From UHGV virus genome UHGV-1836283: a DNA stretch of 20,078 nt. One strand, 5' to 3'. Source of the DNA: a virus. The notes under the pieces are model-generated. The model was not told where the DNA came from, did no database searches, and saw only the letters and a program-made list of their open reading frames with translations. The translations under genes and the position numbers were made by a program. Below, in pieces: positions 1-18,849 of the stretch. Within the stretch, counting starts at the first letter, position 1; every line of letters begins with the position of its first letter.

Positions 1-1
1 C

Positions 2-133
2 CCGCGGCAGGGATTCCCGCGTGTCAAATTTCGTCATCAGACGCGGTTCCTTGACTTCGCGGATCTGGTCAGCGGTAATGTAAAACCTCCCATGTTTCTC
101 AATTTCCCGCTCAATCCGGTATTTATCAAATAA
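2..133 (+). CDS. Unassigned partial ORF (C-terminal 43 codons, enters from left edge, TAA at 131-133), convergent with tfa; a mutually exclusive minus-strand ORF starting at ATG 37 is equally possible
   Basis: Open frame 2 from window start to TAA 131-133, followed 35 nt later by a terminator hairpin. Product not recognised. Confidence 0.3.
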   Translation, partial: PRQGFPRVKFRHQTRFLDFADLVSGNVKPPMFLNFPLNPVFIK

Positions 134-168
134 AATTCTCCCAAAGAATAACGTGCAAGCAGCAAAAT

Positions 169-186
169 ACGCCCCATAAGGGGCGT
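169..186. terminator. Bidirectional rho-independent terminator-like hairpin just downstream of tfa
   Basis: Perfect 7-bp GC-rich stem ACGCCCC/GGGGCGT with 4-nt loop. A-run before and T-rich run after on the plus strand; on the minus strand the stem is followed by UAUUUUG, 5 nt after the tfa stop. Confidence 0.6.
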
Positions 187-190
187 TTAT

Positions 191-790
191 TTATATGAAT
201 GGTTTTTTAGGCCAGATGATATTGTGAGCTTTCTGGGTATCTACTGCCTGAACAGCTTTGATATAGTTCACCCAAGATATTAGTTTTTCTTTATCTTCGT
301 CGCTGATAATTCCCAGCTGTAATTCAGTCTGCCAAAGAATGATCTTTTCCTTTGCGAACAGAAGCTGCACAGATTTCTGTTGCTCTGCCGCTTCCACTTC
401 CGCTACGTGCTGAGCATTGATATCCGTCACCCATTTTTCACCATCCCATTTATCGTATGGCGTTAACGGGGCGATAGTGGTTGTATTTTCAGGATAATCA
501 CCCGGAGCTGTGATTTCTTTCGATTCTCCCGTTTCGGTGTTATAGACGATTTCACCGCGATGGTCTGACACATATTCCCATGATTTTAAATCCACAGAAC
601 GGCAAATTGTATAACCAGCCTTAGATGTACCAGGAGCGTCTAAACAGGAATATGCTGGAATACCGACACCCACTGCAAGATATTCAGTTGATGCAGAAAT
701 ATATTCCCGCGTCTCACCATCATAGTTATAAACAGTAATATTCCCCGCCTTCGTGGCAATAAGCTCGCTATTTAATACGGCGTTATCCAT
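191..790 (-). CDS. Tail fibre assembly protein (Tfa family, Mu U-like)
   Basis: 199 aa; C-terminal pattern (…WQTELQLGIISDEDKEKLISWVNYIKAVQAVD…IIWPKKP) typical of Tfa chaperones; start overlaps the fibre stop (TAATG); position directly after the fibre gene. Confidence 0.8.
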   Translation of the reverse strand: MDNAVLNSELIATKAGNITVYNYDGETREYISASTEYLAVGVGIPAYSCLDAPGTSKAGYTICRSVDLKSWEYVSDHRGEIVYNTETGESKEITAPGDYPENTTTIAPLTPYDKWDGEKWVTDINAQHVAEVEAAEQQKSVQLLFAKEKIILWQTELQLGIISDEDKEKLISWVNYIKAVQAVDTQKAHNIIWPKKPFI

Positions 791-1494
791 TATGCAGCCC
801 TCACGATATAGTTAAATGCAATATTTCGTGGACGGGTTTCGCTCCCGCCATATGATGATGTAAATCCCGAATATGCCCGGTGTCCCGCATCCGTCGTATT
901 AGCCCAGGAAGGACCGCTAGAAGTATAGATGGCCCCATTGTAATCATGGCCGTGTGCCTCAATGCTCCCGTCCTGAGCAGACAGGAGAGTCCGTCCTGAA
1001 TCAATTCCTCTTCCATCATCCCACCCACGAATGAATTCGCCGCGTAAATCTGGCAATTTATTTGTCGGATAAACTTTTGCCAGTTCCGGATACTCTTCGG
1101 CAGAAAAAGCTGCACCGTTGCATTTCAGCCAGCCTGTTGGCGGTGTGACTGAAGGCCACGGAACAGGTACGCCAACAGGCAATGCTGAGCCTTCTCCTAA
1201 ACTAAGGTTTTCGAGAGCCGTTTGCACAGTGCCATCCGATTTGATATCGCCAAACGGATTCTTGCGGCTTAACAGCAGCGCACGAAGTGCGGTAAGCATC
1301 TGGTCATGCCGCCCTTTCTCCAGGCTGGCACCGGAGGCCTCCACCACGCTACAAAGTTCTTCCTGCAACATGTCAAAGTAGTCATCATCCAGATCGGTGG
1401 CAGGTGTGCCGGTCTGGGGGTTACCACGGGTAAAACCGTTCTTACCCGCGCCGAACTTATCCTTCTGCGCGGTTTTCGTGTCTATACGATGCAT
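790..1494 (-). CDS. Tail fibre protein with C-terminal phage tail-collar domain
   Basis: 234 aa; N-terminus [21 protein letters not shown]… as in Mu-type prophage fibres; C-terminal motifs [25 protein letters not shown]…[17 protein letters not shown]…HGH match the tail-collar fold. Confidence 0.8.
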
Positions 1495-1497
1495 GGA

Positions 1498-2082
1498 TTA
1501 CTCCGGATATTTAAAAATTACGTAGGTATGCGAAGGGCAGAGTTTGTTAAGCACGCACTCGACAACGGTGTCGCCCCAGATACGCAGTGCGGAATCACAG
1601 GGATCGCCACATGTCATCCAGGTGGTGTTGGTGGCGGCTGGCATGTTGACCTGCCAGTAATACCGCCATTCCGGCGCATTCACTGCGTCAGTACAGGCCG
1701 ATGAGCAGGTGAACGTGCTTTTATCGTATCGCGTGATAGTGGCGTCTGGTCTGCCCAGGGCAGCAAGCTGTGCAAGGTAAAAATCCTCATTGATGCCGCC
1801 CGCCAGATTAACCTTCGCATCCAGCCGTTGCTGACGCTGGCGAAGGGTCTGTGTCCCTGCGGGAATACATTCATCCGGCAGACCGCACAGACGCTCCCAG
1901 CGGTTTATCAGTTCAGTGGTGGTGCGCGGATCCAGCTCCCGCATCAGGGCATCCGCACGCTGATGAACGCGGGTTAATGAAGGTGCCGCACCGGCAATCG
2001 CCGGATCGCTGGCTGACCATGCAGGACCGGGCGGCAACAGTGCCGATAACAGGCGGATGTAATCATCGTTTGTCACGTCCAT
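1498..2082 (-). CDS. Mu gp48-like tail/baseplate protein (DUF2313, YmfQ-like)
   Basis: 194 aa; N-terminus [22 protein letters not shown] characteristic of the family; sits between baseplate J and the tail fibre as in Mu. Confidence 0.75.
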
Positions 2083-3131
2083 GAAATCGTCCCCAGAACC
2101 GCCAGTTCATTTTTTGCAATGGAGATATTGTCTGCCGGTGCAAGCAACTGATGGCTGTATTCCCCGTTCGCACCGGAAATCGCCTCACTGATACGCGATA
2201 CCTTCAGTTCTCCCTGCGGATAACCATCACGCAGCAGGAACGAACGCAACTCCGCGGTGATGGCAGCCCGTATTTCCGGTGTGTCCGGCGTCACGCGGAT
2301 ATGAAAATCCACTTTATGCGCCACCGGCCTGAATACATACAAATCAGAGCCTGCCACCGGGGCCAGTGGCTCAATGTGTTGTCTTGCCGCCGTTTCCGTT
2401 GATTCTTCCGGAATGGGATTAATCAGGTCACTGCTGGCAATCATCACACCGACAGTCCCCGTTCCCATCCAGTGGCGGTATGTCCATGCACGGGTAATGC
2501 CTGACACTTCTTTAGCCCAGACGACATAGTCCCCGTCAGCCCCGCCCTGAGGCGTCCAGTAATACCGCTCAATGACGCGGGCGCGCCACGTTTCCAGCTC
2601 TTCAGTATCAAATCCGCCAGTCAGGGTATCTGCAACACCGGAAGACGGCAGACCATTCACCGGCGTGACCAGGATTAATGCCGTACCGTCGTCAGCGTTA
2701 CCGACCGCGCCTGTAGTTGAGCAAGTGATCGGCACGCGCAGGACACCACCGGAGCTGGTTGCATCGTCAGTTGTCGTGTACTGCACCAGGTCATCGCGCT
2801 GAATAACACTCCCGGCGGTCACCTTCAGGCCATCGCTGACACCTTCCCAGCGCATATACCCGCTGGCAGCCGTGGCCCCCTTGCGCGGACACCGTTTCAT
2901 CGCAGCATGTCGCGCCAGCCAGGACTCATCGCACAGGTCAGGCAGCATGTTCATTGCCAGATAATCGATGTAACCGTAAACCGTATGCAGCGCCGCCGCA
3001 TACACCTTTGCCCGCACGTCTTCATCCATGCGCCGGAGCGTGTCGCTGACGTCCAGCCTGGCGAATAAATCGTTACGGAGCATACTGATATTTTCTGCCA
3101 GCGTCGGGCGCTGAAATTCACTGTCCGCCAT
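2073..3131 (-). CDS. Baseplate J-like protein (Mu gp47-like)
   Basis: 352 aa; size and position in the Mu-type baseplate cluster; 10-nt overlap with the downstream gene. Confidence 0.8.
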
Positions 3132-3546
3132 GCGTTATCGCACTCCACAGATCATCAAAAGAAATCATTACCGGTCCGTCACGACGCCAGAGAGTGATAC
3201 TGTTACCCAGTTCATTAATCCCGGTGCGGCGGATATCCAGATCAATACGGGACACCACGCCGTCATCAATCATCCATTGCAGGCATTCGCGGATATACCC
3301 CCTTACCGTCTGCACCAGCTGATTGGTCAGTTTGCTGCGCTGAAGCAGCCACAGTCGGGAGCCGTAACGGTCATTCTGTACCGCAGGCCAGGTATCCCCC
3401 CACCATCCCATCGGGACATCGGCGTTGTCATCAGGCTCCGCCCGCCGCCAGGTAAACAGGGAAATCACCACGGCGCGGGTCAGCGGATCCAGCTGTGCGC
3501 TGGCGCAGGTGCGTTTACCGTTCACCGTCAGCCACAGTTCCATCAT
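3118..3546 (-). CDS. Phage GP46-family baseplate protein (Mu gp46-like)
   Basis: 142 aa; recognised family pattern and conserved position between gp45 and gp47 homologues. Confidence 0.75.
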   Translation of the reverse strand: MMELWLTVNGKRTCASAQLDPLTRAVVISLFTWRRAEPDDNADVPMGWWGDTWPAVQNDRYGSRLWLLQRSKLTNQLVQTVRGYIRECLQWMIDDGVVSRIDLDIRRTGINELGNSITLWRRDGPVMISFDDLWSAITHGGQ

Positions 3547-4091
3547 GCCTCCATCGCTTTATCAGGTTTGTCGGTGTTACTGCCCTGACCGTTCTCTCTG
3601 TGACGATGCCCGTTATAGGCAAGCCGCATCGCTGACATGGTGGTACCGCCGGAGTCGCACAGGTCTTTCACCTGTCCGGTCACTTCCAGGTCCATTTCAA
3701 AACGTGCTCTGGGCGCATTGCGAAACGTGATCGTTTTACCTGCACCGTCCACCACGATCCCCTCCCGGGTCAGCGTCACAGACTGCCCCTGATCGTCATA
3801 GACAGCCACCTCACCCGTCTGCAGCCCTTTCAGGCGGTAGCGCCGGTCCGACACCGTAACAACCACCGCATGAGAACGGTCGCCATCCGGAAACAACACC
3901 ACCGCTTCCGCACCGCTGTTTGCCCTTGCGGTAAAACCGTAGGGTTCAAGATGTTCAACCCCGGCTTTGGGTTCACCGGCAATCAGGGACACATCCACGG
4001 TCTGACATTTCGTGGCGGCACTGATGCTTTTCACCACTGCCCGCCCAATCAGGCCGAGGAGTTGTCGCTGCATGGCTTCAATCGTCCTCAT
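3543..4091 (-). CDS. Baseplate assembly protein V / central spike (Mu gp45-like)
   Basis: 182 aa; gpV-like N-terminal region; 4-nt overlap with the next gene. Confidence 0.8.
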   Translation of the reverse strand: MRTIEAMQRQLLGLIGRAVVKSISAATKCQTVDVSLIAGEPKAGVEHLEPYGFTARANSGAEAVVLFPDGDRSHAVVVTVSDRRYRLKGLQTGEVAVYDDQGQSVTLTREGIVVDGAGKTITFRNAPRARFEMDLEVTGQVKDLCDSGGTTMSAMRLAYNGHRHRENGQGSNTDKPDKAMEA

Positions 4092-5170
4092 CAGAACGGG
4101 TCCTCCTGTACTCTGGCTTTTTTCTTTTTCCGCGCGCCGGGGGCTTCGGGTTCAGGCAGATAAGCATCAGGTGGGCCGACACGGATTTCCGTCAGGGTGC
4201 CGTTCTGGTCCTGAGTAAACGTGACTTCCGAAACAAGCAGTTCGGTATTGTCGAAACCACAGACCGGATCAAAGACAATCACCCGCTGGTTGGGCTGCCA
4301 CAGCGTACCGTTACCCTGTCGCCAGCCCTGCACCACATAGGTGGTTTCATCCGTCCGCGCCGCCCGTTGCCGGGCTTCAAAGTCAGCACGCGCAATACAG
4401 CCTGCCCCCGTAGCCTGCCCTGTCTGCCTGATATACATCGGACGGTAACGGGCAATAAATGCGTCCTCTGTGCGGGCCCGCAGCGCGGTGGTGGTGGCCT
4501 CACCGAAATCATCGTCGTTTCCGGCACGCTGCCCCGCCACCTGGTAAACAGAAAACCGCTCCCGGATACTCTTCTCCGTATCGCAGGAAAGGATGTTTTC
4601 CCCGAGTACCAGCGCAGTATGTGCCCGCGTTGAGCCAATACCGCCAATCACCAGCCTGCCGTGCGGGTCGTCGTAAGCCAGTGCCTGCTGCTGACCGAGT
4701 ATTTTGTTGATTACCTCAATCACCGTTTCACCGTGATCAGGCTGAACATCAGGAATAACACCCGACGGCGCACCGCTGTTCACCACCTCAATGCCGAAAG
4801 GCGCAGCAAGCGCCTGCGCAATCTGCACCAGCGAGCGTCCGTTAAACTGTGTCGGTTCGGCTGCACAGTCAATCAGGTCAGCCGTCAGACTACGTCCGGC
4901 AATACCGGTGCTGACCGAACGGGAATCGTAACGAACGGGCGTCGCCTCCACCCAGCCGGTGATCACCAGCTCATCACCAATCAGCACTTCCACTTTTGAA
5001 CCGTTTTTAATGCGCGGCTGAAGCGTGGTGATACCCTCATCTCCCGGCCACTGGCGGGTGATCTCCACACTGAAATCCCGCGCCAGCCGTTCAATACCGG
5101 CACCGATGCGCACCGATGTCCAGCCATTCCACTCCCGGCCATTTACCCGTAGCGTGACATTGTCGTTCAT
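4091..5170 (-). CDS. Baseplate hub protein (Mu gp44 / P, late control D family)
   Basis: 359 aa; MNDNVTLRVNGREW… N-terminus; conserved position; start/stop overlap with neighbours. Confidence 0.8.
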   Translation of the reverse strand: MNDNVTLRVNGREWNGWTSVRIGAGIERLARDFSVEITRQWPGDEGITTLQPRIKNGSKVEVLIGDELVITGWVEATPVRYDSRSVSTGIAGRSLTADLIDCAAEPTQFNGRSLVQIAQALAAPFGIEVVNSGAPSGVIPDVQPDHGETVIEVINKILGQQQALAYDDPHGRLVIGGIGSTRAHTALVLGENILSCDTEKSIRERFSVYQVAGQRAGNDDDFGEATTTALRARTEDAFIARYRPMYIRQTGQATGAGCIARADFEARQRAARTDETTYVVQGWRQGNGTLWQPNQRVIVFDPVCGFDNTELLVSEVTFTQDQNGTLTEIRVGPPDAYLPEPEAPGARKKKKARVQEDPF

Positions 5171-6495
5171 TGCACTGGCACCTTCAGAGGGATCACCGGC
5201 ACAAAGCCGGGATGCGTAATGGCATTACGCCGGATAATGTCCGCGTCACGCGCCGCGTTATCAAACCAGGTCGCCGCCAGCACCAGCGCGGGTAAAACTT
5301 CATCCGGTGTGCGCTGAATGATCCGTGCAGACTGTTCAAGGCGCGTGTTGATATCCGCATTCAGATCTGCTTTCACCCGGCGCAGCGCCAGAAACAGCGC
5401 ATCGCTGGTTGTACGGGACAACTCCTTATCAATTGCCGTATTCAGTGTGTCGCGAATGTCAGTCAGTTCTTCCCACGTCGGCAGGTCAACCGTGTTTTTC
5501 ACCGCCGGTGCATTGTTCAGTGCCGGATGCGTGACGGAAGGCCAGCCAGTGCTCTGCGCGGGTGTTGTTGCCTGCCCCACTGCGGCATTCTGCATCACCG
5601 CGGAAGTTGTTGGCGCAGGCAATCGGGTGACGGCATACGCCGCTTCGCTGATTGCGGTCGTACGAAGGGTGCTGGCAACCACGTTACGCTGCTGCGTCGC
5701 CGTGGCGGTGGTTTTACTGTCCGTTTTCCAGACGCCGCGCGGTTGCAGATCGCTGCCGAGGCTGACACCGGAAAGCGTTTTGATCATGGTGACCAGGTCG
5801 CTGGCGTTACCATAAAGGCGTTTCCCGGTACGCCACATTTTCTGCACCTGCTCAACGAAATTTTTGCCTGACGATGGCGGCGGCAGAAGTACCGAGATAT
5901 CCCCCTGCAACAGCCTGGCGGCATCCGATACGGCAGAATCCACCACTTTCATCGCATCAGAAATATACCCAAGCATTGTGCCGGCATTACCGACGACGTC
6001 GTTCTGCACAAAATCTGCCACGCCATCGATACTGAAACCACTGAAACTGTCACTGATGCAGTCATCCAGTGCAGAACAGGATGACATCAGCGTCTGCGCC
6101 GTCGCCGCACCTGATGTGGGGTAAGAGAGTTCTCCCGCTTCGACAAACTTCAGGTCAAAGCGGACAATACGTCCTTCACTTTTCGATGTGCTGACCCGAA
6201 CTTCCCCGTCAACACAGACTTTCAGCTCACCGTAAGTCGGATGGACAAGCGTGCCGGGACCGGGTTTATTCAGCGCTTCAATCAGGCGATCGCGCTGGTC
6301 AAAGCAGTCATCTCCCACCACATAAGCTGTGATGGACGGGCGGAAAGTGACTTTTCCCAGATCTTCGGTATAGGGTTTGTCGCGGTTCGGATATTCGTGT
6401 GTTTCCACACGACGGCCGGTTCCCGCACTTTCTTCTTCAACCTTAAACGGCACACCTCGAAATGACGCGTCCTGAAGTCTGTCTTTCCACGTCAT
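5167..6495 (-). CDS. DNA circulation protein (Mu gp43 / N-like); start moved to the internal ATG at 6495
   Basis: N-terminus MTWKDRLQDASFRGVPF… from the ATG at 6495 is preceded by GGAG. The ORF-track start at 6537 would make the protein run through a terminator hairpin. Confidence 0.8.
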   Translation of the reverse strand: MTWKDRLQDASFRGVPFKVEEESAGTGRRVETHEYPNRDKPYTEDLGKVTFRPSITAYVVGDDCFDQRDRLIEALNKPGPGTLVHPTYGELKVCVDGEVRVSTSKSEGRIVRFDLKFVEAGELSYPTSGAATAQTLMSSCSALDDCISDSFSGFSIDGVADFVQNDVVGNAGTMLGYISDAMKVVDSAVSDAARLLQGDISVLLPPPSSGKNFVEQVQKMWRTGKRLYGNASDLVTMIKTLSGVSLGSDLQPRGVWKTDSKTTATATQQRNVVASTLRTTAISEAAYAVTRLPAPTTSAVMQNAAVGQATTPAQSTGWPSVTHPALNNAPAVKNTVDLPTWEELTDIRDTLNTAIDKELSRTTSDALFLALRRVKADLNADINTRLEQSARIIQRTPDEVLPALVLAATWFDNAARDADIIRRNAITHPGFVPVIPLKVPVQ

Positions 6496-6510
6496 ATAAA
6501 CTCCGTACAT

Positions 6511-6532
6511 AAAAAATCCCACCGGAGTGGGA
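6511..6532 (-). terminator. Intra-operon rho-independent terminator/attenuator between tape measure and gp43 genes
   Basis: Minus-strand RNA: stem TCCCAC/GTGGGA (loop UCCG, extendable by wobble pairs) followed by UUUUUUAU, 23 nt after the tape-measure stop. Confidence 0.5.
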
Positions 6533-6555
6533 CTCATTAACAGATTAATTTTTCA

Positions 6556-8391
6556 TTACCTGCCAAAGCGCGTATAGCCAACATCATGGCTGACATCAAA
6601 ACCGCTGGATCGCGTTTCCATAACCCGCATACCCGGAGGCGAATTCACAAAAGAGACCTTGATCTCACCATCAACTTTTGGCGCAGAAGCTTTGTTAATC
6701 ATGAAGGGATTTGGGCCTGTGGCACCGGAGGCGTTGTTTGACTGAGCCAGATCTACCGCCGGATAAGGTTTGTATCCCCGCGCCGGTATTCCCGTCCCAT
6801 AAGCATCATAAGCACCCGCGCCCCACTGCGCAGAGTTAATGGCATCGACCGTGTCACCGGAACTGTCGGTAAACCATTCAATAATCGGCTTCAGCTTATC
6901 CCACATATCCTGAAACCACTTAACAACCGGTCCCCAGTTATTGATCACCATCCCCAGCGGCGACCAGGCAAAAACCTTCTTCAGAAGTTCCCAGCCAGCC
7001 TCAAAATAAGGACTAATGGTTTCCCAGAGTTTCTTAAAATAAGGTCCGACAACATCCCAGTTAGTGATAATTAATCCCGCAGCCAGGGCTATCGCCGTCG
7101 CAATCATGCCAATCGGCGTCATCGACATGATCCTGCTGACAATACTGATGGCACCGCCAACGCCCATCAATCCCAGTTTCAGAATCGCAAGACCGGCAGC
7201 AAGCCCGACGACGCCGCGAATAACCCGGGGATTTTCATCCGCAAACTTCGTGAATTTCTCCCCCAACTCCCCCAGCCATTGCGTGATATTTTTGGCGTCA
7301 CCAGAAAATGCGCCGCCAATAGCCGCAAGGCCGTTAGTTGCGGTCCCCGTCATTGCCTCCCACAGGTTGGACAGCGTACCAAGCTGGGCCTGAACACGTT
7401 TATTCAGGCTGGCCTGTTTATTCATCTTCTGCTGGATCTGATCGTAGCCATCCTTTCCTTTATCGATTAGTGCATTGACCACCTGAAGGGTTTCGGCATC
7501 ATCACCAAATATTGCCTTAAGTACACCTGTTCGCTTAACGTCGGTCAGTTTTCGCAGCTTTGCCAGTTGCCTGAACATGTTATCAAGACCGCCAAAACTC
7601 CCTTTGCCGTCAGTAAAATCGAGCTGCACTCCGAGTTTCTGGCGGGCCATGACTTTATTGACGTCCCTGATTTTCTTAACGCTTAATCCGGACTGAATAA
7701 CTTTTCGCAGGGCATTACCTGCCGACTCCCCGTTCATCCCCATCTGATCCATCATGACGCTGATAGGGGCAAGGCTCTGTGCAGCCTGAAGACCGTCCTT
7801 ATTCACCATCTTCAGAACAGAACTGGTTTTAGTGAAGAAGGACAACATGTTGGTATCGTCAACGCCCAGATAAAACGCTTTCTGGATAGTGTCGAACAGC
7901 CCCATCATGTCTTCTGACGCCGTTCCGGTAGCATCCTGCATCTTTGCAGCAAACTCGGCTGCCGATTCCGGTGTTTTTTTCAGTTGTACCGCAAGATAAG
8001 CTGTCGCTTTACCCACACCACCCAGAATGTTTTCTGCTGGGATCCCCTGACGCACCAGCATCTGCATCATGTTCTGGAAATCAGCCGTTGTACCGGGTAG
8101 CTGGTTACCCAGGCCAATAGCCAGTTTATTGATGTCCTGAAAGCTCTTTCCAACCTCGCCGTTCGCATCCATCATGGCGACTTTCAGCCCGGTGGCGGCG
8201 TTTTCCTGATCGGCATAAGATTTCAGGGAAAGCGTCAGACCCGCTGCCAGTCCGCCACCAAGCGCCAGCCCACCCTGTGACGCTTCTTCCGCCTGGCGTT
8301 TAAATCCCCGGATTTTCTTTTGCATTTTCGACAGCGCCGGAGAAAGCCTGTCGACACCGGTGATCAACGCCTTAAGCTCAAATTCAGCCAT
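6556..8391 (-). CDS. Tail tape measure protein (Mu gp42-like)
   Basis: 611 aa; Ala/Gly-rich hydrophobic segments (GVVGLAAGLAILKLGLMGVGGAISIV) typical of tape measure proteins; located right after the chaperone pair. Confidence 0.85.
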   Translation of the reverse strand: MAEFELKALITGVDRLSPALSKMQKKIRGFKRQAEEASQGGLALGGGLAAGLTLSLKSYADQENAATGLKVAMMDANGEVGKSFQDINKLAIGLGNQLPGTTADFQNMMQMLVRQGIPAENILGGVGKATAYLAVQLKKTPESAAEFAAKMQDATGTASEDMMGLFDTIQKAFYLGVDDTNMLSFFTKTSSVLKMVNKDGLQAAQSLAPISVMMDQMGMNGESAGNALRKVIQSGLSVKKIRDVNKVMARQKLGVQLDFTDGKGSFGGLDNMFRQLAKLRKLTDVKRTGVLKAIFGDDAETLQVVNALIDKGKDGYDQIQQKMNKQASLNKRVQAQLGTLSNLWEAMTGTATNGLAAIGGAFSGDAKNITQWLGELGEKFTKFADENPRVIRGVVGLAAGLAILKLGLMGVGGAISIVSRIMSMTPIGMIATAIALAAGLIITNWDVVGPYFKKLWETISPYFEAGWELLKKVFAWSPLGMVINNWGPVVKWFQDMWDKLKPIIEWFTDSSGDTVDAINSAQWGAGAYDAYGTGIPARGYKPYPAVDLAQSNNASGATGPNPFMINKASAPKVDGEIKVSFVNSPPGMRVMETRSSGFDVSHDVGYTRFGR

Positions 8392-8566
8392 GTGTGCGTT
8401 TCTCCTGCTCTATCCTGTTTGCCTGACTGACCAGTAAGGGAATTTCACTGATCGGCATATTCAGCAATTCGAAAGGATTAATGCGCCAGTAACTGGCGCA
8501 GTCAAAGAAGCGATCAGTGAGGTATTCAGCCGTCAGGCCTGGAGGAAAAAACCGGCCACAAGCCAC
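8384..8566 (-). CDS. -1 frame extension of the tail assembly chaperone (gpT-like part of a G/GT-type fusion)
   Basis: 60-codon ORF in the -1 frame relative to 8533..8802, overlapping its 3' end and the tape-measure start by 8 nt; a slippery heptamer lies in the overlap. Confidence 0.6.
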   Translation of the reverse strand: MACGRFFPPGLTAEYLTDRFFDCASYWRINPFELLNMPISEIPLLVSQANRIEQEKRTHG

Positions 8567-8802
8567 GCCGCTGCATTCAGGTCTGCCGGAGACATCTGGT
8601 CGACAGAGCTTTGCGGCACTTTCGCCAGCCGCACGATGTATTTCGATACCACATGCGCCAGAAGTCTGACGGACTCATCCTGATTCATCTGGTAGGGATA
8701 TCCCAGCTCGCGGACATCTTTCCCGGTGGGCTCATCAAACTCCAGTACGGAGAGTGTCTCGCCATGAGCGGTAATCGGTTTCTTTAACTCAAGCTCTTTC
8801 AT
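8533..8802 (-). CDS. Tail assembly chaperone (Mu gp41-like)
   Basis: 89 aa acidic protein between tube and tape-measure genes; start overlaps the tube gene stop. Confidence 0.75.
   Translation of the reverse strand: MKELELKKPITAHGETLSVLEFDEPTGKDVRELGYPYQMNQDESVRLLAHVVSKYIVRLAKVPQSSVDQMSPADLNAAAWLVAGFFLQA
8545..8551 (-). other. Programmed -1 ribosomal frameshift slippery site U UUU UUC
   Basis: Minus-strand TTTTTTC in X XXY YYZ register of the chaperone frame (…GCC GGT TTT TTC…), 10 nt before its stop. A -1 shift gives …VAGFF-PPGLTAEYL…. Confidence 0.6.
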
Positions 8803-9158
8803 TACTGGTAATCCCCTTCTTCACCGTGGAACTCAAGATCAACCGTGCCTTCTTCGGCATTATGGTTCGCTTCGCCGTGCAGCCAGGCAGACGACAGTAC
8901 ATAGACCTGACCGTTCGCCAGCTCGGCAGTGATTGTCATCTCATCAGACGAGGTGATTTTGTTCACCGGAAAATTCTTCGGCACCTTGAAGGTCCCTTTG
9001 ACATAAGGCGCACGGTGAGTTTCCTTGCGGTCCACTGAACCGTCCAGGCCGATGATGTCATCATTGACCGTCCTGTTCATGGGCACCTCAATGCCGCCGG
9101 TCAGCGATAGCTGCTGACCGTCAATTTTGAAATAACAGGTTCCCCCGATACGGGCCAT
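8802..9158 (-). CDS. Tail tube protein (Mu gp40 / M-like)
   Basis: 118 aa; directly downstream of the sheath gene with start/stop overlap. Confidence 0.85.
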   Translation of the reverse strand: MARIGGTCYFKIDGQQLSLTGGIEVPMNRTVNDDIIGLDGSVDRKETHRAPYVKGTFKVPKNFPVNKITSSDEMTITAELANGQVYVLSSAWLHGEANHNAEEGTVDLEFHGEEGDYQ

Positions 9159-10654
9159 TATGCAGACTCCTCTGAATACTGAAGACGGAACTGGTTAACC
9201 ACGGCAAAGACACGCAACTGGTTAACATAGTCAGGCGGGAACAGCGTGTTCAGGCGGTTCGGATCGCTGGCATCACGCTCCACAACCAGGTACTGCTTAA
9301 ACAGTTCGTAGTTTTCCACGATCCCCGCACGCTCAAGCTGACGGTAGGTTGCCAGCAGTTCCCCTTTGATCACCGCCGGGGTGACAATCGCCTGACCGGG
9401 ACCAAAGCGGGTACCGTCACTGGCAAGCTTGTGACGCCCGTACTTACTGGTAATGACGGATTTCAGTTTGCGCAGTACATACGCGCTGGTATGCAGTGTC
9501 TCACTGTCGAGGTAGCTGTTATCCGCAACCCCGTAAGCGTTTTTCCTGTACGTGGTGACATCACGCTGAATGCGCAGTACCCCGCTTTCGACATACGCCG
9601 TTGCCACGCCATGAGACAGCAGGGTCTGTTGTTCGGTCATCGTGAACCGTTTCCCCTTCGGCGCAGGCAGCATACCCACCATCTCACCGGTCTGCGTGGG
9701 ACGTGCCGGATCGTTGCGGATAAACACCGCTGCGCGGGCGGTACGGCTGGCTGCCAGCTCGTCGGCAGGCGTCTGGGTCTCTTTTTCGTACCCCGCCAGG
9801 GTGATGTGCTGCTGGTTAAACTGGTCACCTGCGTTCACCAGTTCTGACAGTGTGCCGGCCTTTGCCGTATACACATGACCATACAGCTGACGCGCATAGC
9901 TCCAGCGACCGCTGGTATCGTTCATCTCGGTCACCAGCGTGTTAACAGAGGCCGTGTCGTTGAACGGCAGACCGATATAATCAAACGGCTCATCCGCCAT
10001 TGCAGCCACCGCGCCGGTGAGAACCGGAGCGCCCGTTCCGGCGGTCCCCGTCGCCACGGCAATCTGTACGCCCGCTGGCAGCACTTCGCCCCCACCGAAG
10101 CCGTAGTAATTGAGGCTGACAGGAATTTCATTCCCGCAAAGCCCCTTATGGCGAGCGGTCAATGTAACCACACCAGCCGAAGATGAGGCCGTAAACGGCA
10201 GGGCCGGAACGGCATTGATGGCATCTTTGATACTGCTGGCAATCGTCGCGACGTTATCGCCGTTGGTCACCGGTGCCTGCACGCGGGTACGTCCCACATA
10301 AACATTCACCGTGCCGGTTTCGGTTGCTGCCCCGGTCACCGTCAGCGTAACTGTTGCCGCCGCGCCTGTGGATTCAGGAACGGCAATCACATACAGCTCG
10401 CCAAACGGGTCGGTCTGGCGATAAGCCTCGACCATACGCGCCAGCTGACTTCCCGCACCACAAATCTGGCGTGCATAGTCTGCCGACGGCATCAGTACCA
10501 GACTGTTGGCAACAATCTCTGCACCGTTATTGGCATGACCAATCAGCAGCGATGCTCCGCTGTCCTGTGCAGTATTCGCCGCCTGGTTATCCATTTCCGC
10601 ATAAAACAACGGAACCAGCGTATTCGACGGAATGGTGTTAAAGCTTATCGTCAT
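9158..10654 (-). CDS. Contractile tail sheath protein (Mu gp39 / L-like)
   Basis: 498 aa; sheath-like sequence and conserved sheath-tube-chaperone-tape measure order. Confidence 0.9.
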   Translation of the reverse strand: MTISFNTIPSNTLVPLFYAEMDNQAANTAQDSGASLLIGHANNGAEIVANSLVLMPSADYARQICGAGSQLARMVEAYRQTDPFGELYVIAVPESTGAAATVTLTVTGAATETGTVNVYVGRTRVQAPVTNGDNVATIASSIKDAINAVPALPFTASSSAGVVTLTARHKGLCGNEIPVSLNYYGFGGGEVLPAGVQIAVATGTAGTGAPVLTGAVAAMADEPFDYIGLPFNDTASVNTLVTEMNDTSGRWSYARQLYGHVYTAKAGTLSELVNAGDQFNQQHITLAGYEKETQTPADELAASRTARAAVFIRNDPARPTQTGEMVGMLPAPKGKRFTMTEQQTLLSHGVATAYVESGVLRIQRDVTTYRKNAYGVADNSYLDSETLHTSAYVLRKLKSVITSKYGRHKLASDGTRFGPGQAIVTPAVIKGELLATYRQLERAGIVENYELFKQYLVVERDASDPNRLNTLFPPDYVNQLRVFAVVNQFRLQYSEESA

Positions 10655-10808
10655 CGGTATTCACCTTTTTATTCACGCGCCGGATATCACCCGCTGCTTC
10701 ACGGCGCAGCCAGTAGTTGTTCTCGTCAACATTTCGCCCTTCGGCGGGCAAAAGGTCGCCGCGGGCAGGGTCAGGCACTGACCGCCCTTTAACAGGTTTG
10801 ACAAACAT
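10638..10808 (-). CDS. Small hypothetical protein (56 aa), below the ORF-track size cut-off
   Basis: ATG at 10808 preceded by GAGGA at 5-nt spacing, 8 nt after the upstream gene stop; TAA at 10638-10640 overlaps the sheath start by 17 nt. Translation MFVKPVKGRSVPDPARGDLLPAEGRNVDENNYWLRREAAGDIRRVNKKVNTDDDKL. Confidence 0.45.
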   Translation of the reverse strand: MFVKPVKGRSVPDPARGDLLPAEGRNVDENNYWLRREAAGDIRRVNKKVNTDDDKL

Positions 10809-10816
10809 GAGGATCC

Positions 10817-11377
10817 TCAGGAAGGAAGGGTTATTTCGGTGTGATGTTCGATATCGCCGTCAGGCCCGTTACCGGGCTCGAGATAATCAACATCAATCGC
10901 CAGCGTTTGCAGTTCATCCAGACTGTTCAGATCATCCTGCTGGCGGGTATCGTCTTCAGTCAGCTCGCTGATGACCGAAAAATCGAACTGATAAATCAGC
11001 TCATGACGATTCAGATCCAGCAGCGTGCCGCCGTCATAGGTAATCGGGTTACCACACGCTTCCGGGTTCCAGCCCAGCAGAGCCTTAAAGAGCATCTGCC
11101 GGACATCGTCCACCACATCATACGAGGCAAACTGACCGCGCTCATCACGCCCGTTACTCAGTATGACAACCACGGAGAAGCCCTCTTTCAGCTCCTGCCA
11201 GTAGTCGGTCTGGCTTTTGTTTTCTCCCGGAGAGTCATCACCCGGTACCACATACGCCGCCGGGAGTCTCAGCTTTCCGACCTCCGGCAGATTTTTGAAC
11301 TGTGCCGCGCCTGCCACCCGGTTTTCAAAATACGGACAGCGGGCACGCAGTGCAGCAATAACGGGCGTCAGTTTCAT
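10817..11377 (-). CDS. Mu gp37-like virion protein (DUF1834-type)
   Basis: 186 aa; recognised family pattern and position upstream of the sheath gene. Confidence 0.65.
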   Translation of the reverse strand: MKLTPVIAALRARCPYFENRVAGAAQFKNLPEVGKLRLPAAYVVPGDDSPGENKSQTDYWQELKEGFSVVVILSNGRDERGQFASYDVVDDVRQMLFKALLGWNPEACGNPITYDGGTLLDLNRHELIYQFDFSVISELTEDDTRQQDDLNSLDELQTLAIDVDYLEPGNGPDGDIEHHTEITLPS

Positions 11378-11880
11378 CTGTGTCGTCGCTCCGGCTTCAG
11401 TGATTTACGCAATTCCCGCGCCAGAAAATAGCGTGTCCAGCTGCGGTTCTTTTCAAGAGTTTCCACCATGAAGTTATTACGTGGAGCCAGTCGCCAGCCG
11501 CTGCCACCGGATGCACCACGATGATGGCCGCGACGACGCTTTGCCCCTCGCCTCACGCCATAGAACAAAAAAGCCGGATAAAAATCACCGGTGATACGGC
11601 GGTTTCCCTCTCCATTACGCTGGTTAGGGGCTATACGTGCCATAAAACCAGGGCGATGTTTACTGGCTCTGGGTACCATGTAACCAATTGAGCGAGCCAG
11701 GCGTCCGGTCTGATAACCGGGGTTTTCACCCGGTGCCGACCGCGCACGGCGCATCACCAGCCGACGGGCATCACGCATATGACGCTGACCAATCGTGACA
11801 AACGCCCGCCGGACATGGGCGCGGTTAAAGCGCATCTCCGCGGGCTGCTGAAAATCAACGTGCAAAAAGGAAGTCGTCAT
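11374..11880 (-). CDS. Virion morphogenesis / tail completion protein (HK97 gp10-like)
   Basis: 168 aa, very basic C-terminus; sits between head closure and tail genes. Confidence 0.6.
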   Translation of the reverse strand: MTTSFLHVDFQQPAEMRFNRAHVRRAFVTIGQRHMRDARRLVMRRARSAPGENPGYQTGRLARSIGYMVPRASKHRPGFMARIAPNQRNGEGNRRITGDFYPAFLFYGVRRGAKRRRGHHRGASGGSGWRLAPRNNFMVETLEKNRSWTRYFLARELRKSLKPERRHR

Positions 11881-12265
11881 TGTTGCCTCCGTGACTCTGC
11901 CTACATTCGCCCAGCTCCGTACACTCCAGCAGCAGAAAGCGCCGCGCTCCGTTCAGATCGCGCTGACGTTTCACCCGGTACACACTGTCACCGCAGACCA
12001 CCTCATAATCAGCGGTGATCCCCCGGCGGTAACGAATGGTGATGTAATGGGTGATGGCGTCTCCGGTCTGCGCGGTTTCCTGCCAGGTGGTGGCACTGGT
12101 CTGGATAACCTTCGCCCATGCCCGGAACGCAACCGGGTATTGAGGCTCCACGCCAAAGTTATCCGCGGGCATATCCACCCGCTGGCGGATCAGGACGCGT
12201 TTATTCAGTTCGCCGGGGTCCGGCAGAATGTAGGTTGCGCTGGTCTGCGCCTGACGAATTTTCAT
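11855..12265 (-). CDS. Head closure / head-tail adaptor protein
   Basis: 136 aa; family-like pattern (…AWAKVIQTSATTWQETAQTGDAITHYITIRYR…RFLLLECTE); follows the connector gene. Confidence 0.7.
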   Translation of the reverse strand: MKIRQAQTSATYILPDPGELNKRVLIRQRVDMPADNFGVEPQYPVAFRAWAKVIQTSATTWQETAQTGDAITHYITIRYRRGITADYEVVCGDSVYRVKRQRDLNGARRFLLLECTELGECRQSHGGNNDDFLFAR

Positions 12266-12585
12266 AGTGGTATAAGGCGATAAGGAACAACCAACCAGTT
12301 AAAACTCATTGGCAACTCCATTTTCTCAACGTCTGTAACCGTTGAGCGGTTTTCGTAGAAATGGCTGACAAGTAGCAGAAGCGCCAGCTTCACATCATCA
12401 GATATCACAAGCCCATCAGGATCATCCGCAGGCCTGTCATCTGCGGTTGCATACAACTTACGGTTAAGGAAGTTTTCCGTACGACTCTGAGCGGCCTTAC
12501 CAAGCAGTTCAAGCAACTCATCTTCATCAGAGAAATCATCATCCAGACGGAGCTGAAGCTTAATCTCTTCCATTTTTAACAGCAT
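12262..12585 (-). CDS. Head-tail connector (gp6-like); start moved to ATG at 12585
   Basis: MLLKMEEIKLQLRLDDDFSDEDELLELL… matches the gp6-like connector family. AGGAGG lies 4 nt upstream of the ATG at 12585; the ORF-track start at 12630 runs through a hairpin and A-run. Confidence 0.7.
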   Translation of the reverse strand: MLLKMEEIKLQLRLDDDFSDEDELLELLGKAAQSRTENFLNRKLYATADDRPADDPDGLVISDDVKLALLLLVSHFYENRSTVTDVEKMELPMSFNWLVVPYRLIPL

Positions 12586-12595
12586 AAAACCTCCT

Positions 12596-12637
12596 GTGCC
12601 CGCCAGAACGCGGGCACAAAAAAACCGCATTACGCGG
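12596..12637 (-). promoter_or_regulatory. Hairpin pair after the major capsid gene: weak terminator plus strong stem abutting the next RBS
   Basis: Minus-strand RNA: CCGC-GUAAU-GCGG + U7, then 8-bp stem GUGCCCGC/GCGGGCAC, then AGGAGG-UUUU-AUG of the connector gene. Confidence 0.45.
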
Positions 12638-12663
12638 CGTGCTGTATTACGTAAAAAGACTAA

Positions 12664-13893
12664 TCAACCACCAACGCTACCTTTCCCCACCAGCGCTTTA
12701 ATGGCAGAGGTGTCTTCCAGGATACAGTCAAAACGATGGAAGGCCAGAAAACCGGTCTGATCATATTCCGCGTAACGCTCAACCAGACGTTTAAGAATCA
12801 TGTATCGCACACGACGGATAATGAAGCGATCAAAGTCACCACAGAACATGAATTTTTTACCCGCCCCGATATCATCAATTTCCTGATCAATGACATACGG
12901 TACATTCAACACTGAAGCAGGTGCCACACCAACAATATCCGGCAACCATAAAGGGCGTCCCTGACCGTCTTCCATCTCACTGATCAGTTTCAGCGTATTA
13001 TCGTTAAACGCCAGGCGGAATTTCGGCCCGCGACGATATGCAGGATCAATGCTGTGTTTCAGAGCCAGAATTTCCTGCCACTTCACCGTATTTGCCGCGG
13101 CAGTCTGTGTTGTGCCGGTCACAGATGCGACCAGCCCTTTGGGTTGTTTAGGCGTACCAGCACCAGTTCCCTGAATCAGATAACGGGCTTCACCACGACC
13201 AATACGTTCAGCAATACGACGGGCAAGATAAGCTTCCATATCGATCGCGCTGTCCTGCAGCAACTCATTAGACACACGAATGATTTTCGATGTCATTTTG
13301 AGCGCCCCAAGACTTCCCATACCGAAATCGGTGTCTTCTTCACCGGCTTCTTCATTTTCGCCCAGCAGAACACCAACTTCGGAAGTACCATCAGCTGTTG
13401 CCCACTCCATAGTGCGACCGTCAGAAGTGGTAAGAATCTGCGCCACACTGGCGATGCCACCGTAGGACTTCATCTTCTCAACAACTTTCGCCAGGAATGT
13501 TTCTGGTACGGTATATCCGCCCTTTTCATCCTGAGCTACGCCCTGGGCACGAAGTTCACGCAACGCCTTTCGTTCTTCTGATGTCAGCTCACTGGCACCG
13601 TGACGCATCCACTTATCAAAAACCTGAGCTCGTTTCTCATCCTGTTGCGGATTGTTTTCCGGATCAAGATTCTGACGCTGCTCTTCCTCATTGCTTTCAA
13701 TGTACGCCTGATCCTGACGACGCAGTTCTTCTTCGCGTGCAATTCGTTCATCAAGCGCTTCCAGTTCGGATTTTGCTTTGTTCCACTCAGTGCGCTGCTC
13801 TTCCGTCCATGCGTTATCACCAATTTTTTCATTCAGGGCACGCATGTCAGTTGCGATAGTATTACGTTTCTGTTTCAGTTCATGCAGTTTCAT
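12664..13893 (-). CDS. Major capsid protein, HK97 family
   Basis: 409 aa; charged coiled-coil N-terminal region (delta-domain-like) and HK97-type body; preceded by AGGAA RBS. Confidence 0.9.
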   Translation of the reverse strand: MKLHELKQKRNTIATDMRALNEKIGDNAWTEEQRTEWNKAKSELEALDERIAREEELRRQDQAYIESNEEEQRQNLDPENNPQQDEKRAQVFDKWMRHGASELTSEERKALRELRAQGVAQDEKGGYTVPETFLAKVVEKMKSYGGIASVAQILTTSDGRTMEWATADGTSEVGVLLGENEEAGEEDTDFGMGSLGALKMTSKIIRVSNELLQDSAIDMEAYLARRIAERIGRGEARYLIQGTGAGTPKQPKGLVASVTGTTQTAAANTVKWQEILALKHSIDPAYRRGPKFRLAFNDNTLKLISEMEDGQGRPLWLPDIVGVAPASVLNVPYVIDQEIDDIGAGKKFMFCGDFDRFIIRRVRYMILKRLVERYAEYDQTGFLAFHRFDCILEDTSAIKALVGKGSVGG

Positions 13894-13903
13894 GATGTTT
13901 CCT

Positions 13904-14506
13904 TTACGCGTTAAGAAGGGTCAGGACGCGCTCACGCGCCATACGTTGATTAATGGCTTTCTGTAGCGCGCCGCTGTTGCGCGCCTCCTGCCATGCTTTC
14001 ATGGAGCGAACAGCCGAGTCAGCCTCCTGATAGGCAGGATATGTCACAGGACTGACATCCAGCAGACGGGAAAAGCGGGTTATCTCGCGAATAACAACCC
14101 CGTCCTCATCCTGATACCACTCCTCGCCGTCACGGGCGACACGGAAAGCAAAAGATGACTGGTTAATATCTCCACGTTGCATCGGGGCCAGCACCAGATC
14201 ACGAATGGTCTGTGTCTCCGGAGCCTGGATGTCATAGCGCAATCCGCGCTCATCAACTGAAAGATTCAGCGTGCCTGCTGCACTACGCCCAAGAATAAAA
14301 TTAGGATCGTGGTTAAACAGTGCGCGTACATCATCACCAAGCACATCGTCAAAAGCGCCGGGCCGGATGATTTCGCGGAATGAACCAAATATCAGCTCAG
14401 AACGACAGTCAAACACCGATCCATAACCGATAATGTGCGCAGGGTTATCGTCATGCCGCTCAGCACGCACCTCACCGCTGTAACAACGGATTTCACGGTC
14501 ATTCAT
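13904..14506 (-). CDS. Prohead protease, HK97 family; start moved to ATG at 14506
   Basis: HK97-family protease sequence (…AHIIGYGSVFD…). ATG at 14506 (MNDREIR…) has a GAGGGA RBS and overlaps the portal stop (ATGAATGA); the ORF-track start at 14563 lacks an RBS. Confidence 0.85.
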   Translation of the reverse strand: MNDREIRCYSGEVRAERHDDNPAHIIGYGSVFDCRSELIFGSFREIIRPGAFDDVLGDDVRALFNHDPNFILGRSAAGTLNLSVDERGLRYDIQAPETQTIRDLVLAPMQRGDINQSSFAFRVARDGEEWYQDEDGVVIREITRFSRLLDVSPVTYPAYQEADSAVRSMKAWQEARNSGALQKAINQRMARERVLTLLNA

Positions 14507-15725
14507 TGGTTTTTCCCTCATCTTTTTTTGGGGGCTTAAAATCTCCTGCCGGGTTAGCAGCATTCACGCTTACCAGCATCTCATCCAGCCCTTCAACCGG
14601 ATTCATATCCTCGAATGCGCGGGCCTCATTACGGCTCATCCATCCATCGGTAATAGCGAAGTGATAGAATTGCGCGCGCTCCTGCGGAGTTCCGCGTAAA
14701 AGCCCCGTCAGATTGAACCTGACGTAATACCCGGCGGCTAACTCAGCGCGGGTAAACAAGCGACGGTTAAGCTCCTGCTCCCAGTTCGTCACCCACGGCA
14801 TCATCGTGTAGCGGACAAACTGAATCGCCTGCGCAGAAATATTGGAGAAGGTGGCTTTTTCGAGGTCATTAATCATGTGCGCAGGAATATTGAAAATACC
14901 GGCAATCATTGAACGGTTCAGTTTCATCATGTCAATGATCTGAGCGTCAACTGGCGACACAGTCAGTGCCTTGTAATCCAGATCGGCTGGCAGCAGCATG
15001 GTTTTGTTTTCCTGGCTGCGTAACGCCTGCGATGCCTTCTGCCACTGATCTTTAAGCCAGCCCCAGCTGTCCTTATTGAGTCCGCTTTTAACGGATACTA
15101 TCCCCGCCGGACGGGCATTACCGCTGAAGAAGCTTTCTGTGTATTTCTGACCGCTCATCCCCATGCCTATTGTTTCGGCATGTTGCATAATCGGACTCAG
15201 CCCCATCTTCTGATTATTACCCAGCGCACGGATGTGGATCATATCGTCGGGGCTGATCGCAAACGCCCCATATTCGTTGTACAAACCGTAGGTGTATCGG
15301 CCACCAGTATTCATCAGCGTCGTTTCCCACGGCATACAGCAATCCAGGGATATGACTTCACCGCGACGATTACGTTTCACCCAGGTATACCCATTCCCCC
15401 AGCCAAGGATGTGACGTTGCTTCAGTTCGCGCCATTTGTAACTGGTTTGCCAGGTATTGGGCTCATCATGAACCAGATAAAACGCCGGATGATCGCGTGC
15501 GGGCTCAACCTTCCCATTGTGCCTGCGCATAACATGCAACGGCATCTGGGCAAGGCTGGAAGACAGGACATAGATACAGGAATACACCGCAGCCAGTTTC
15601 ATCGCAGTTTCAGGACTGACATAAACGTCTGCCCGGAACAGCCCATCAGTATCAACGGCATCCCCGGTTATCGGGGTGGAAGGATTCTCCAGTGATTTAC
15701 TTCTGAACAGAGCATCAAGCAGCAC
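14499..15725 (-). CDS. Portal protein, HK97 family
   Basis: 408 aa; recognised portal family; the start codon at 15725 is GTG. Confidence 0.9.
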   Translation of the reverse strand: MLLDALFRSKSLENPSTPITGDAVDTDGLFRADVYVSPETAMKLAAVYSCIYVLSSSLAQMPLHVMRRHNGKVEPARDHPAFYLVHDEPNTWQTSYKWRELKQRHILGWGNGYTWVKRNRRGEVISLDCCMPWETTLMNTGGRYTYGLYNEYGAFAISPDDMIHIRALGNNQKMGLSPIMQHAETIGMGMSGQKYTESFFSGNARPAGIVSVKSGLNKDSWGWLKDQWQKASQALRSQENKTMLLPADLDYKALTVSPVDAQIIDMMKLNRSMIAGIFNIPAHMINDLEKATFSNISAQAIQFVRYTMMPWVTNWEQELNRRLFTRAELAAGYYVRFNLTGLLRGTPQERAQFYHFAITDGWMSRNEARAFEDMNPVEGLDEMLVSVNAANPAGDFKPPKKDEGKTNE

Positions 15726-15876
15726 GCGTCCCCCTTCTGGCCATAGCCAGTGCGCCCACCAGCAGTAAACCGCCGGACAGCATCAGAGCCGGAGCCATAC
15801 CAAACTGCAGGTAAAACCCGCACGTAAGCAGGCCAAAACCAGCCAACCCGATAACATCAGCAATTAGTGATTTCAT
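15715..15876 (-). CDS. Small predicted two-helix membrane protein (53 aa) between terminase large subunit and portal
   Basis: ATG overlaps the terminase stop (ATGA); stop overlaps the portal start. Translation [53 protein letters not shown]: two hydrophobic stretches, basic C-terminus. No strong RBS. Confidence 0.4.
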
Positions 15877-17606: not shown

Positions 17607-17619
17607 GATTCGATGATTT

Positions 17620-18105
17620 TCAGATTGTCAGAAACGGGTTAGTGGCTTTCTTCTTCCCCGCCAGGCCAATCAGACGCTGGCGGCTGCTGGGGTCGAGTCC
17701 GAGCATTGCCCCCGTGCTGCTCATCTCGGACTCCTGTTCTTTTTTGGCGGTCAGCTCCGGATTTTTGACCATGCCGCCCATTGCACCGGTGATGGTGTTG
17801 CCCTGTCTGGCAATATTTTTCACGGCACGTCGCCAGAATTCATAGGCCACACACCACCGCTCAAGTACCGCCAGGTCAGTCACGCACAGCAGGCCCTGAC
17901 CGCAGAGTTCTTTGGTTGTCAGTTGCCACATGATCGTGGCGAGAGGGAGATCTTCTTCAGCGAACCACTCCGGTGGCTCAACACCTTTGATGGGCGTAAA
18001 AACAGGTTCATCTTTATTCAGGGCTCGCTTGCCGGGGTTTCCGGCCAGCGCCTTGCGCGCCGTTGGCTTGGGGCGACGCCCGGAACGCCCCGCCGTTCCA
18101 GCCAT
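17620..18105 (-). CDS. Terminase small subunit, P27 family; start most likely ATG at 18105
   Basis: P27-type N-terminus [27 protein letters not shown]; AGGAG lies 9 nt upstream of the ATG at 18105. The ORF-track start at 18114 is a GTG with no RBS. Confidence 0.85.
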
Positions 18106-18144
18106 ATGCGGCACTCCTGGTTAAATTTCATTTTTCGCGGGTAT

Positions 18145-18204
18145 AAAAAAACGATGGGGCGGGCAGTCCGGAAGACGTCAGGTCACAGGGATTTGACCCG
18201 CCCC
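18145..18204 (-). promoter_or_regulatory. GC-rich dyad with U-tract between HNH and terminase genes: candidate cos/packaging site or terminator
   Basis: 8-bp inverted repeat GGGGCGGG (18156-18163) / CCCGCCCC (18197-18204) around a 33-nt loop containing a nested GGTCA/TGACC dyad. On the minus strand it is followed by AUCG + U7. Confidence 0.4.
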
Positions 18205-18230
18205 TCCCCTCAGACAGTTGAGAATTATTA

Positions 18231-18581: not shown

Positions 18582-18665
18582 ATGTACTAATCTCCGATTT
18601 ATCCAAATTTAACTGCCATAATGCCGACATTCTCTGCCATTGTTGGCTCCGTTTATCCGTTAAAA

Positions 18666-18735
18666 GGGATATCAGTTAAGTTATCCCGTGTAGGGTATAA
18701 ACCATTATCAAAGCCACTCTGTAGGGAGTGGCTTT
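18666..18735. promoter_or_regulatory. Two terminator-like hairpins in the non-coding stretch between IS2 and the HNH gene
   Basis: Hairpin A: GGGATA(18666-18671)/TATCCC(18682-18687), followed by UUUUAA on the minus strand. Hairpin B: AAGCCACTC(18711-18719)/GAGTGGCTT(18726-18734), followed by TTTGT on the plus strand. Confidence 0.35.
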
Positions 18736-18758
18736 TGTAATGACAATAAAAAGCCCCG

Positions 18759-18799: not shown

Positions 18800-18849
18800 A
18801 ATAAGTGATAGTCTTAATACTAGTTTTTAGACTAGTCATTGGAGAACAG

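Follow-up and report, generated by a model that had tools for sequence, protein, structure and literature searches.

Mu/SfV-like prophages integrated at dusA in Escherichia coli carry genes in the order dusA, integrase, DinI, acyltransferase and tfa (tail fibre assembly). The acyltransferase, a protein of 389 aa with the Pfam domain Acyl_transf_3, is encoded convergently with tfa and has a terminator in common with it; it resembles the O-antigen acetyltransferase cargo genes of serotype-converting phages. Two further systems serve as points of comparison. One is a type II restriction enzyme (R) of the Clostridium fessum/Lachnospiraceae type, the gene for which lies beside that of a methylase (M). 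The other is a product of sequence assembly, the chimeric contig end found in metagenomes assembled with de Bruijn graphs.

The window analyzed here is the whole stretch of 20,078 nucleotides from UHGV virus genome UHGV-1836283. Its first 190 nucleotides had been described in an initial annotation as an unassigned gene just beyond the tail fibre module. Positions 1-190 are the junction of two unrelated genomes, one that of an E. coli prophage and the other that of C. fessum. The two sources overlap exactly, a gene of each is truncated, and the junction is unique to the window. The features of the region are as follows.

1-141, minus strand: fragment of a type II restriction endonuclease gene of C. 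fessum type, with the DUF6996 N-terminal domain (Pfam, PADLOC and nucleotide identity)
2-133, plus strand: antisense open frame, a shadow of the endonuclease fragment and not a gene
35-37, minus strand: ATG proposed as a start, the internal Met43 of the 429-aa endonuclease
37-177, minus strand: 46-codon ORF that starts in the terminator loop, a spurious out-of-frame shadow across the junction and not a called gene
120-141, no strand assigned: junction 22-mer TATTTATCAAATAAAATTCTCC (as read on the plus strand), exact, native both to the acyltransferase 3' end and to R gene codons 8-15
120-179, plus strand: acyltransferase 3' remnant, the last 19 codons YLSNKILPKNNVQAAKYAP and TAA, with 100% nucleotide identity from base 120
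169-186, both strands: terminator hairpin ACGCCCC-ATAA-GGGGCGT, identical in the E. coli relatives
191-790, minus strand: tfa, tail fibre assembly protein (Pfam Caudo_TAP), last gene of the late operon
790-1494, minus strand: tail fibre gene, 234 aa

The prophage and its cargo position

From position 120 to 18758 the window aligns with the chromosome of E. coli MS14385 at 100.0% identity in a single alignment of 18.6 kb, and several further E. coli strains are near-identical over the same interval. Every phage gene of the window is carried on the minus strand, and beyond the tail fibre gene there are Mu/SfV-like baseplate, tape-measure, tube, sheath, head and terminase genes. Positions 18759-20078 are an insertion, a copy of IS2 (IS3 family) that the MS14385-type prophages, otherwise 100% identical, do not have here. 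On its right the window closes with the TAG of the IS2 transposase, so that the last 11 nt of IS2 fall outside it.

The tfa protein was looked up by exact match in an assembly collection, where 916 blocks list it; 25 contigs were read, and these represented six distinct contexts. Among those listed, the acyltransferase adjoins the identical tfa in all six. The cassette of tfa, Acyl_transf_3 and DinI, with an identical tfa protein, was observed behind at least three tail backbones, namely a Mu/SfV-like backbone at dusA, a P2-like backbone and a third type. Since it is found behind different tail backbones, the cassette moves between phages as a module, and the presence of the acyltransferase beside tfa in all listed contexts, across three tail backbones, marks the locus as a cargo slot. 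The initial annotation had expected a cargo site past the tail fibre genes, and this was borne out: the closest E. coli prophages hold the 389-aa acyltransferase between tfa and DinI, integrase and dusA. Read outward from the tail genes, the position in the relatives is tfa, acyltransferase, DinI, int and dusA; the window sequence ends 190 nt past tfa.

All MS14385-type relatives run on into an intact acyltransferase gene. The window has the same locus, the same terminator and the same last 60 nt of the acyltransferase as the dusA-integrated Mu/SfV-like prophages, but it differs from them in holding 19 acyltransferase codons and the stop codon, the body of the gene being replaced by the Clostridium fragment. 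The C-terminal end of the protein is ...FSNYLSNKILPKNNVQAAKYAP and stop in the acyltransferase of E. coli IR53017, and ...IRYLSNKILPKNNVQAAKYAP and stop in the window frame. This frame differs from that of the plus-strand ORF at 2-133. It is thus a third coding remnant, at 120-179 on the plus strand, which was overlooked when two candidate ORFs were first proposed for the region. Neither the terminator nor the acyltransferase remnant is out of the ordinary, and both are already annotated in E. coli genomes.

The predicted terminator downstream of tfa

The tfa stop codon is at 191-193, and the hairpin at 169-186 comes directly after it. A terminator scan reported the hairpin on both strands, with a stem of 7 bp (6 G-C pairs) and a loop of 4 nt. 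It is bordered by a T-tract at 187-196 on the plus strand and by ATTTTG at 168-163 on the minus strand (tails TTTATTTAT and ATTTTG), and its predicted folding energy is -15.4 kcal/mol on the plus strand (z -1.9) and -17.0 kcal/mol on the minus strand (z -2.9). With a G+C-rich stem and a T-run on each strand, the hairpin is by the usual sequence criteria a predicted bidirectional intrinsic terminator, and the earlier description of a strong bidirectional terminator after tfa holds. In the E. coli relatives this predicted terminator serves the two convergent genes, tfa and the acyltransferase. With its G+C-rich 7-bp hairpin and its T-runs on both strands, it resembles bidirectional intrinsic terminators between convergent genes, and nothing about it is unusual; the acyltransferase stop codon (177-179) sits in the hairpin loop.

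No promoter-like site was seen in 1-200, and Rfam searches of 1-400 gave sub-threshold noise only. An attR site or a tRNA had been suggested as something to look for near the end of the prophage, but no tRNA and no att-like feature were found in the window.

A Clostridium fessum restriction gene fragment

On the minus strand, one frame is open from the tfa stop codon to base 1. The stretch LFDKYRIEREIEKHGRFYITADQIREVKEPRLMTKFDTRESLPR from about position 139 matches Pfam PF22515 (DUF6996) with an E value of 7.8e-19 and 67.9 bits (cut-off 27) over profile positions 7-52 of 71, and the frame matches the PADLOC model REase_II (PDLC03513) with an E value of 1.9e-8. The top match among database proteins was P0001, which carries the name 'type II restriction enzyme' (Clostridium fessum), starts MSLIDDKWRILFDKY... 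and has 100% amino acid identity to the window frame. P0001 and a second protein, P0006, are encoded on C. fessum chromosomal contigs, with the gene located 3' to that of a Dam-family D12 methyltransferase. By its N-terminal DUF6996 match, the fragment is a predicted member of a type II restriction endonuclease family.

Comparison with three C. fessum genomes gave 96-98.5% nucleotide identity over window 1-141. Two substitutions relative to C. fessum are present, at positions 88 and 77; one is common to another C. fessum strain, and to judge from the strains compared both are within the strain variation of the species. A sensitive blastn search with window 1-135 returned zero matches in 5,426 complete E. 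coli genomes or 72,556 plasmids, and blastn with window 1-190 returned zero matches in 50,697 phage records. The absence of a match in these searches rules out E. coli, phage or plasmid DNA as the identity of the fragment.

The fragment comprises codons 9 (Arg, 139-137) through 54 (4-2) and one further base, the first of codon 55. Relative to the donor R enzyme it is 100% identical in protein over codons 9-54, but only about 11% of the gene is present. E. coli phage sequence stands where the donor has a methylase gene that runs into the start of R; the methyltransferase position is occupied by the tfa terminator together with what remains of the acyltransferase. Codons 1-8 (MSLIDDKW) are missing together with the start codon. 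Around the start of the fragment the window reads ...CTLFFG-RILFDKY, and there are zero in-frame ATG, GTG or TTG codons between the tfa stop and Met43. The catalytic DUF6997 region and the winged-helix C-terminus, both of which the donor protein has, are outside the window, which stops at codon 54. As it stands, the fragment has no start codon, no methylase partner and, within the window, no catalytic region, and so does not qualify as a functional member of the family. Instead of an intact, independently expressible ORF, the cargo position holds 19 acyltransferase codons and a start-less R fragment. The unassigned gene put forward as phage cargo is in fact a 5'-truncated piece of a C. fessum R gene with no start codon, promoter or methylase partner.

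A genuine small phage gene had been considered in two mutually exclusive forms, a plus-strand ORF ending at 133 or a minus-strand gene from ATG 37 with its own ribosome binding site. Both frames are indeed open, the plus frame from 2 to the TAA at 131-133, and AAGGAA does lie 9 nt upstream of the minus-strand ATG at 37-35, which gives MTKFDTRESLPR in what is the correct coding frame. However, the alignment of the minus frame to DUF6996 begins 34 codons upstream of this ATG, and the 'RBS' and the ATG both fall on invariant codons in the interior of a 429-aa protein: AAGGAA at 47-52 encodes Lys38-Glu39, part of the conserved motif REVKEPRLMTKFD, and the proposed start is Met43. The 43-aa product of the plus ORF is without a match in 5.8 billion proteins, Pfam or PADLOC, and was rejected as a gene. 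Protein and profile searches of the kind originally recommended (BLASTP/HMM) led to the C. fessum R enzyme and DUF6996 for the minus frame, but to nothing for the plus ORF. The sequence is present in no related prophage. We regard a small phage gene at this position as refuted. The original observation is partly confirmed and its interpretation partly supported, in that the slot and the strand were right while the gene model was wrong and the sequence is not cargo.

The donor restriction endonuclease family

The intact R gene of the isolate C. fessum SNUG30386 encodes a protein of 429 aa with the domain order DUF6996-DUF6997-DUF7226. This protein matches PADLOC REase_II over its full length (E 5e-103), its neighbor matches MTase_II (E 5.7e-104), and the partner is a Dam-family methylase (TIGR00571, E 7.8e-90). 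In C. fessum the M and R genes overlap by 14 nt, with the R start codon placed before M has ended; this overlap indicates that M and R form one operon, and R probably has no promoter of its own. Across 26 homologues, M43, K38 and E39 are invariant, as is the block KEPRLMTKFD, and at least 20 invariant residues precede Met43 in DUF6996. The pattern E173-x-D175...E188-x-K190 in the DUF6997 region is likewise invariant in the 26 homologues and would be compatible with a PD-(D/E)XK nuclease. An AlphaFold2 model of the donor enzyme has a mean pLDDT of 73, and the C-terminus is predicted to be a DNA-binding winged-helix domain. A search by sequence for a solved PDB relative of the donor R protein found none, and a literature search found no papers mentioning DUF6997.

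When 185,579 species genomes were scanned, relatives of the R gene were found in 29, all of them Clostridia and mostly Lachnospiraceae; no enterobacterial relative was among them. Public metagenome and genome assemblies contribute 3,343 sequences to the cluster of the C. fessum R protein. The DUF6996-DUF6997-DUF7226 family as a whole (represented by L010 2166-4290, from C. fessum SNUG30386, and P0007) consists of proteins of about 429 aa with Dam-family methylase partners and has more than 4,000 relatives, mostly from metagenome assemblies. Methylase sequences (P0117, P0127) are included in the 90% identity cluster of the R protein P0007, apparently by way of a 524-aa fused M-R gene call; these members are apparently a clustering artefact, which bears on how cluster names are to be read. 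In the two C. fessum MAG contigs (L002 and L003), homopolymer frameshifts split nearly every gene. The R gene is split there into calls of 75 aa (P0001) and 71 aa (P0006), and P0006 starts in the wrong frame, the same as that of the spurious 46-aa ORF of the window, for which it is the only parallel.

The character of the donor system bears on whether the window might carry the beginning of a functional orphan restriction gene as phage defence cargo. A full endonuclease would then continue leftward, to be translated from Met43 or from a non-canonical start, and the cell would tolerate the enzyme because E. coli Dam methylase would stand in for the Dam-family partner that was lost. The fragment has an open frame throughout, and the Dam family membership of the donor partner means that E. 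coli Dam might protect the host. However, the start codon has been lost with the rest of the first 8 codons, and initiation at Met43 would remove most of the conserved DUF6996, with its 20 or more invariant residues upstream. The gene would directly follow a strong terminator, no site resembling a promoter was seen in 1-200, and the position of the donor R start 14 nt inside the M gene makes a promoter of its own improbable. Such a gene also requires that the transfer itself be real. We consider this explanation highly improbable. With no start codon before Met43, a location directly downstream of the tfa terminator, and loss of the translation-coupled methylase gene, the fragment should be inert whether it arose as an artefact or by transfer.

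The junction at 120-141

By exact-match mapping, the window is identical to the E. coli locus L001 from 260 down to 120 and follows the C. fessum loci L002 and L003 from 141 down to 1. The 22-mer at 120-141 belongs to both. In the acyltransferase it corresponds to the codons Y-L-S-N-K-I-L-P, and in the R gene to W8 to Y15. Among the loci checked, it is present only in L001, L002, L003 and L010. The full 22-mer occurs in the MS14385/IR53017 allele only, and most E. coli copies of the acyltransferase (L004-L009, about 10650-10671) differ from it. At the position equivalent to window 140, most E. coli acyltransferase copies have A, whereas the window, IR53017 and MS14385 have G (GGAAGAATTTT versus GGGAGAATTTT, minus strand). 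By chance, a 5.1-Mb genome and one of 3-4 Mb should have about 7-9 21-mers and about 2 22-mers in common; with about 2 such 22-mers expected, the identity needs no common ancestry. The join destroys both the acyltransferase and the R gene, and no expressible product is left.

The end of an IS element or an att site at 119/120 was considered and rejected: there is no IS-like terminus, and both sides are continuous coding sequence of known genes. A 44-mer across the junction and a 36-mer carrying the two variants of the window were absent from JGI metagenomes, and a 28-mer of the foreign part was absent from IMG/VR and from GTDB species genomes. The foreign part was found in none of the related phages and prophages, and all listed contexts of the identical tfa have the acyltransferase instead. 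An exact look-up of the junction-spanning 46-aa ORF returned no record.

Origin of the join

The join is probably a non-biological chimera, produced in assembly or in the library, from a gut metagenome; we assign this reading a probability of about 0.7. In this scheme base 1 would be the end of a metagenome contig, and E. coli and C. fessum would have been co-resident in one gut sample. A chimeric path, created by the assembler or by chimeric library molecules, would have linked the two genomes through the 22-mer that they have in common, and the contig would then have stopped at a 141-nt graph node common to the native C. fessum path. Both species are gut bacteria; that they occurred together in the sample is an assumption.

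Several features point in this direction. The match to C. fessum takes up the first 141 nt of the window, no more and no less. The final k of MEGAHIT is 141 by default, and in a graph of this kind neighboring contigs have one k-mer node in common, so that a 141-nt Clostridium stretch counted from base 1 has the look of a contig end at a k=141 node. The smallest k of common metagenome assemblers is 21, and the 22-nt overlap, just above this value, likewise points to a de Bruijn graph contig end. A contig with the name k141_111235 occurs in the species-genome scan for the R gene. The location of the right edge exactly on the IS2 transposase stop suggests that windows are trimmed at gene ends; base 1, unlike the right edge, is no gene boundary, which fits a contig end on the left. 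It should be noted that our view of which assembler was used, and of base 1 as a contig end, derives from the 141-nt coincidence.

With every assembler, chimeric contigs arise most readily in species of low coverage (PMC7881036). The sources of the two parts are unrelated and near-identical to the window (E. coli 100% from 120, C. fessum 96-98.5% to 141, with the 22-nt overlap), and the junction is not reproduced in any collection searched. Chimeric contig ends of de Bruijn graph metagenomes show the same abrupt switch of source at an exact k-mer just above k=21, with a foreign tail that amounts to one k=141 node at the end of the sequence and a junction that is unique. In contrast, classical chimeras are usually formed at long conserved repeats (rRNA, IS elements) and not at chance identities of 22 nt. 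Two further points count against an artefact. To carry a path through 22 nt at k=141, a strict de Bruijn graph would have to include reads that span the junction or a chimeric contig built at a lower k. The contig, moreover, is unbroken at base 120, the point from which the path into the true acyltransferase should diverge. A sample dominated by junction-bearing molecules would account for both more simply.

A genuine recent transfer would supply such molecules. C. fessum DNA would have reached an MS14385-like E. coli lysogen and taken the place of the acyltransferase by short-homology recombination through the 22 bp, a length close to the minimum for RecA- or Red-type recombination in bacteria or phages. 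A second junction would then lie to the left of the window, and the product would be a dead, 5'-truncated restriction gene. The contig would end 141 nt in because native C. fessum in the sample creates a branch in the graph; a read-supported junction together with co-resident C. fessum would give precisely this contig end, unbroken through base 120 and ending exactly one 141-mer past the point of divergence. The locus is, in addition, a known site of cargo exchange, with the tfa-acyltransferase-DinI cassette in three phage backbones. On the other hand, the zero divergence from the E. coli relatives over 18.6 kb would need a very recent event, and the junction is absent from the 5,426 E. coli genomes, phages, plasmids, IMG/VR, JGI metagenomes and GTDB genomes. 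The R family is found in Clostridia only, no mobile-element vehicle is evident within the 141 nt, and the destruction of both genes brings no selective benefit. The prior for movement of chromosomal DNA between phyla is also far below that for a chimeric contig end. Transfer is in our estimation unlikely, and we favor the chimeric contig end. Most likely, no phage genome really contains the 'unassigned gene'.

Implications for phage cargo genes and the restriction family

As an artefact, the locus is a caution: a foreign tail of 119 nt gave two plausible ORFs and a convincing 'RBS' at a site where phage cargo is expected. Foreign tails at contig ends can seed false calls of cargo genes or of horizontal transfer. 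As a separate point, the DUF6996-DUF6997-DUF7226 proteins of the donor are a predicted, uncharacterised family of type II restriction endonucleases whose three domains are still DUFs in Pfam. Were the junction real, it would be an observed transfer between phyla, from a Firmicute to an E. coli prophage, by way of a 22-bp chance homology and into a cargo slot, and it may carry a restriction gene made tolerable by the Dam methylase of E. coli itself. It would then be a rare snapshot that bears on how phage cargo slots acquire genes.
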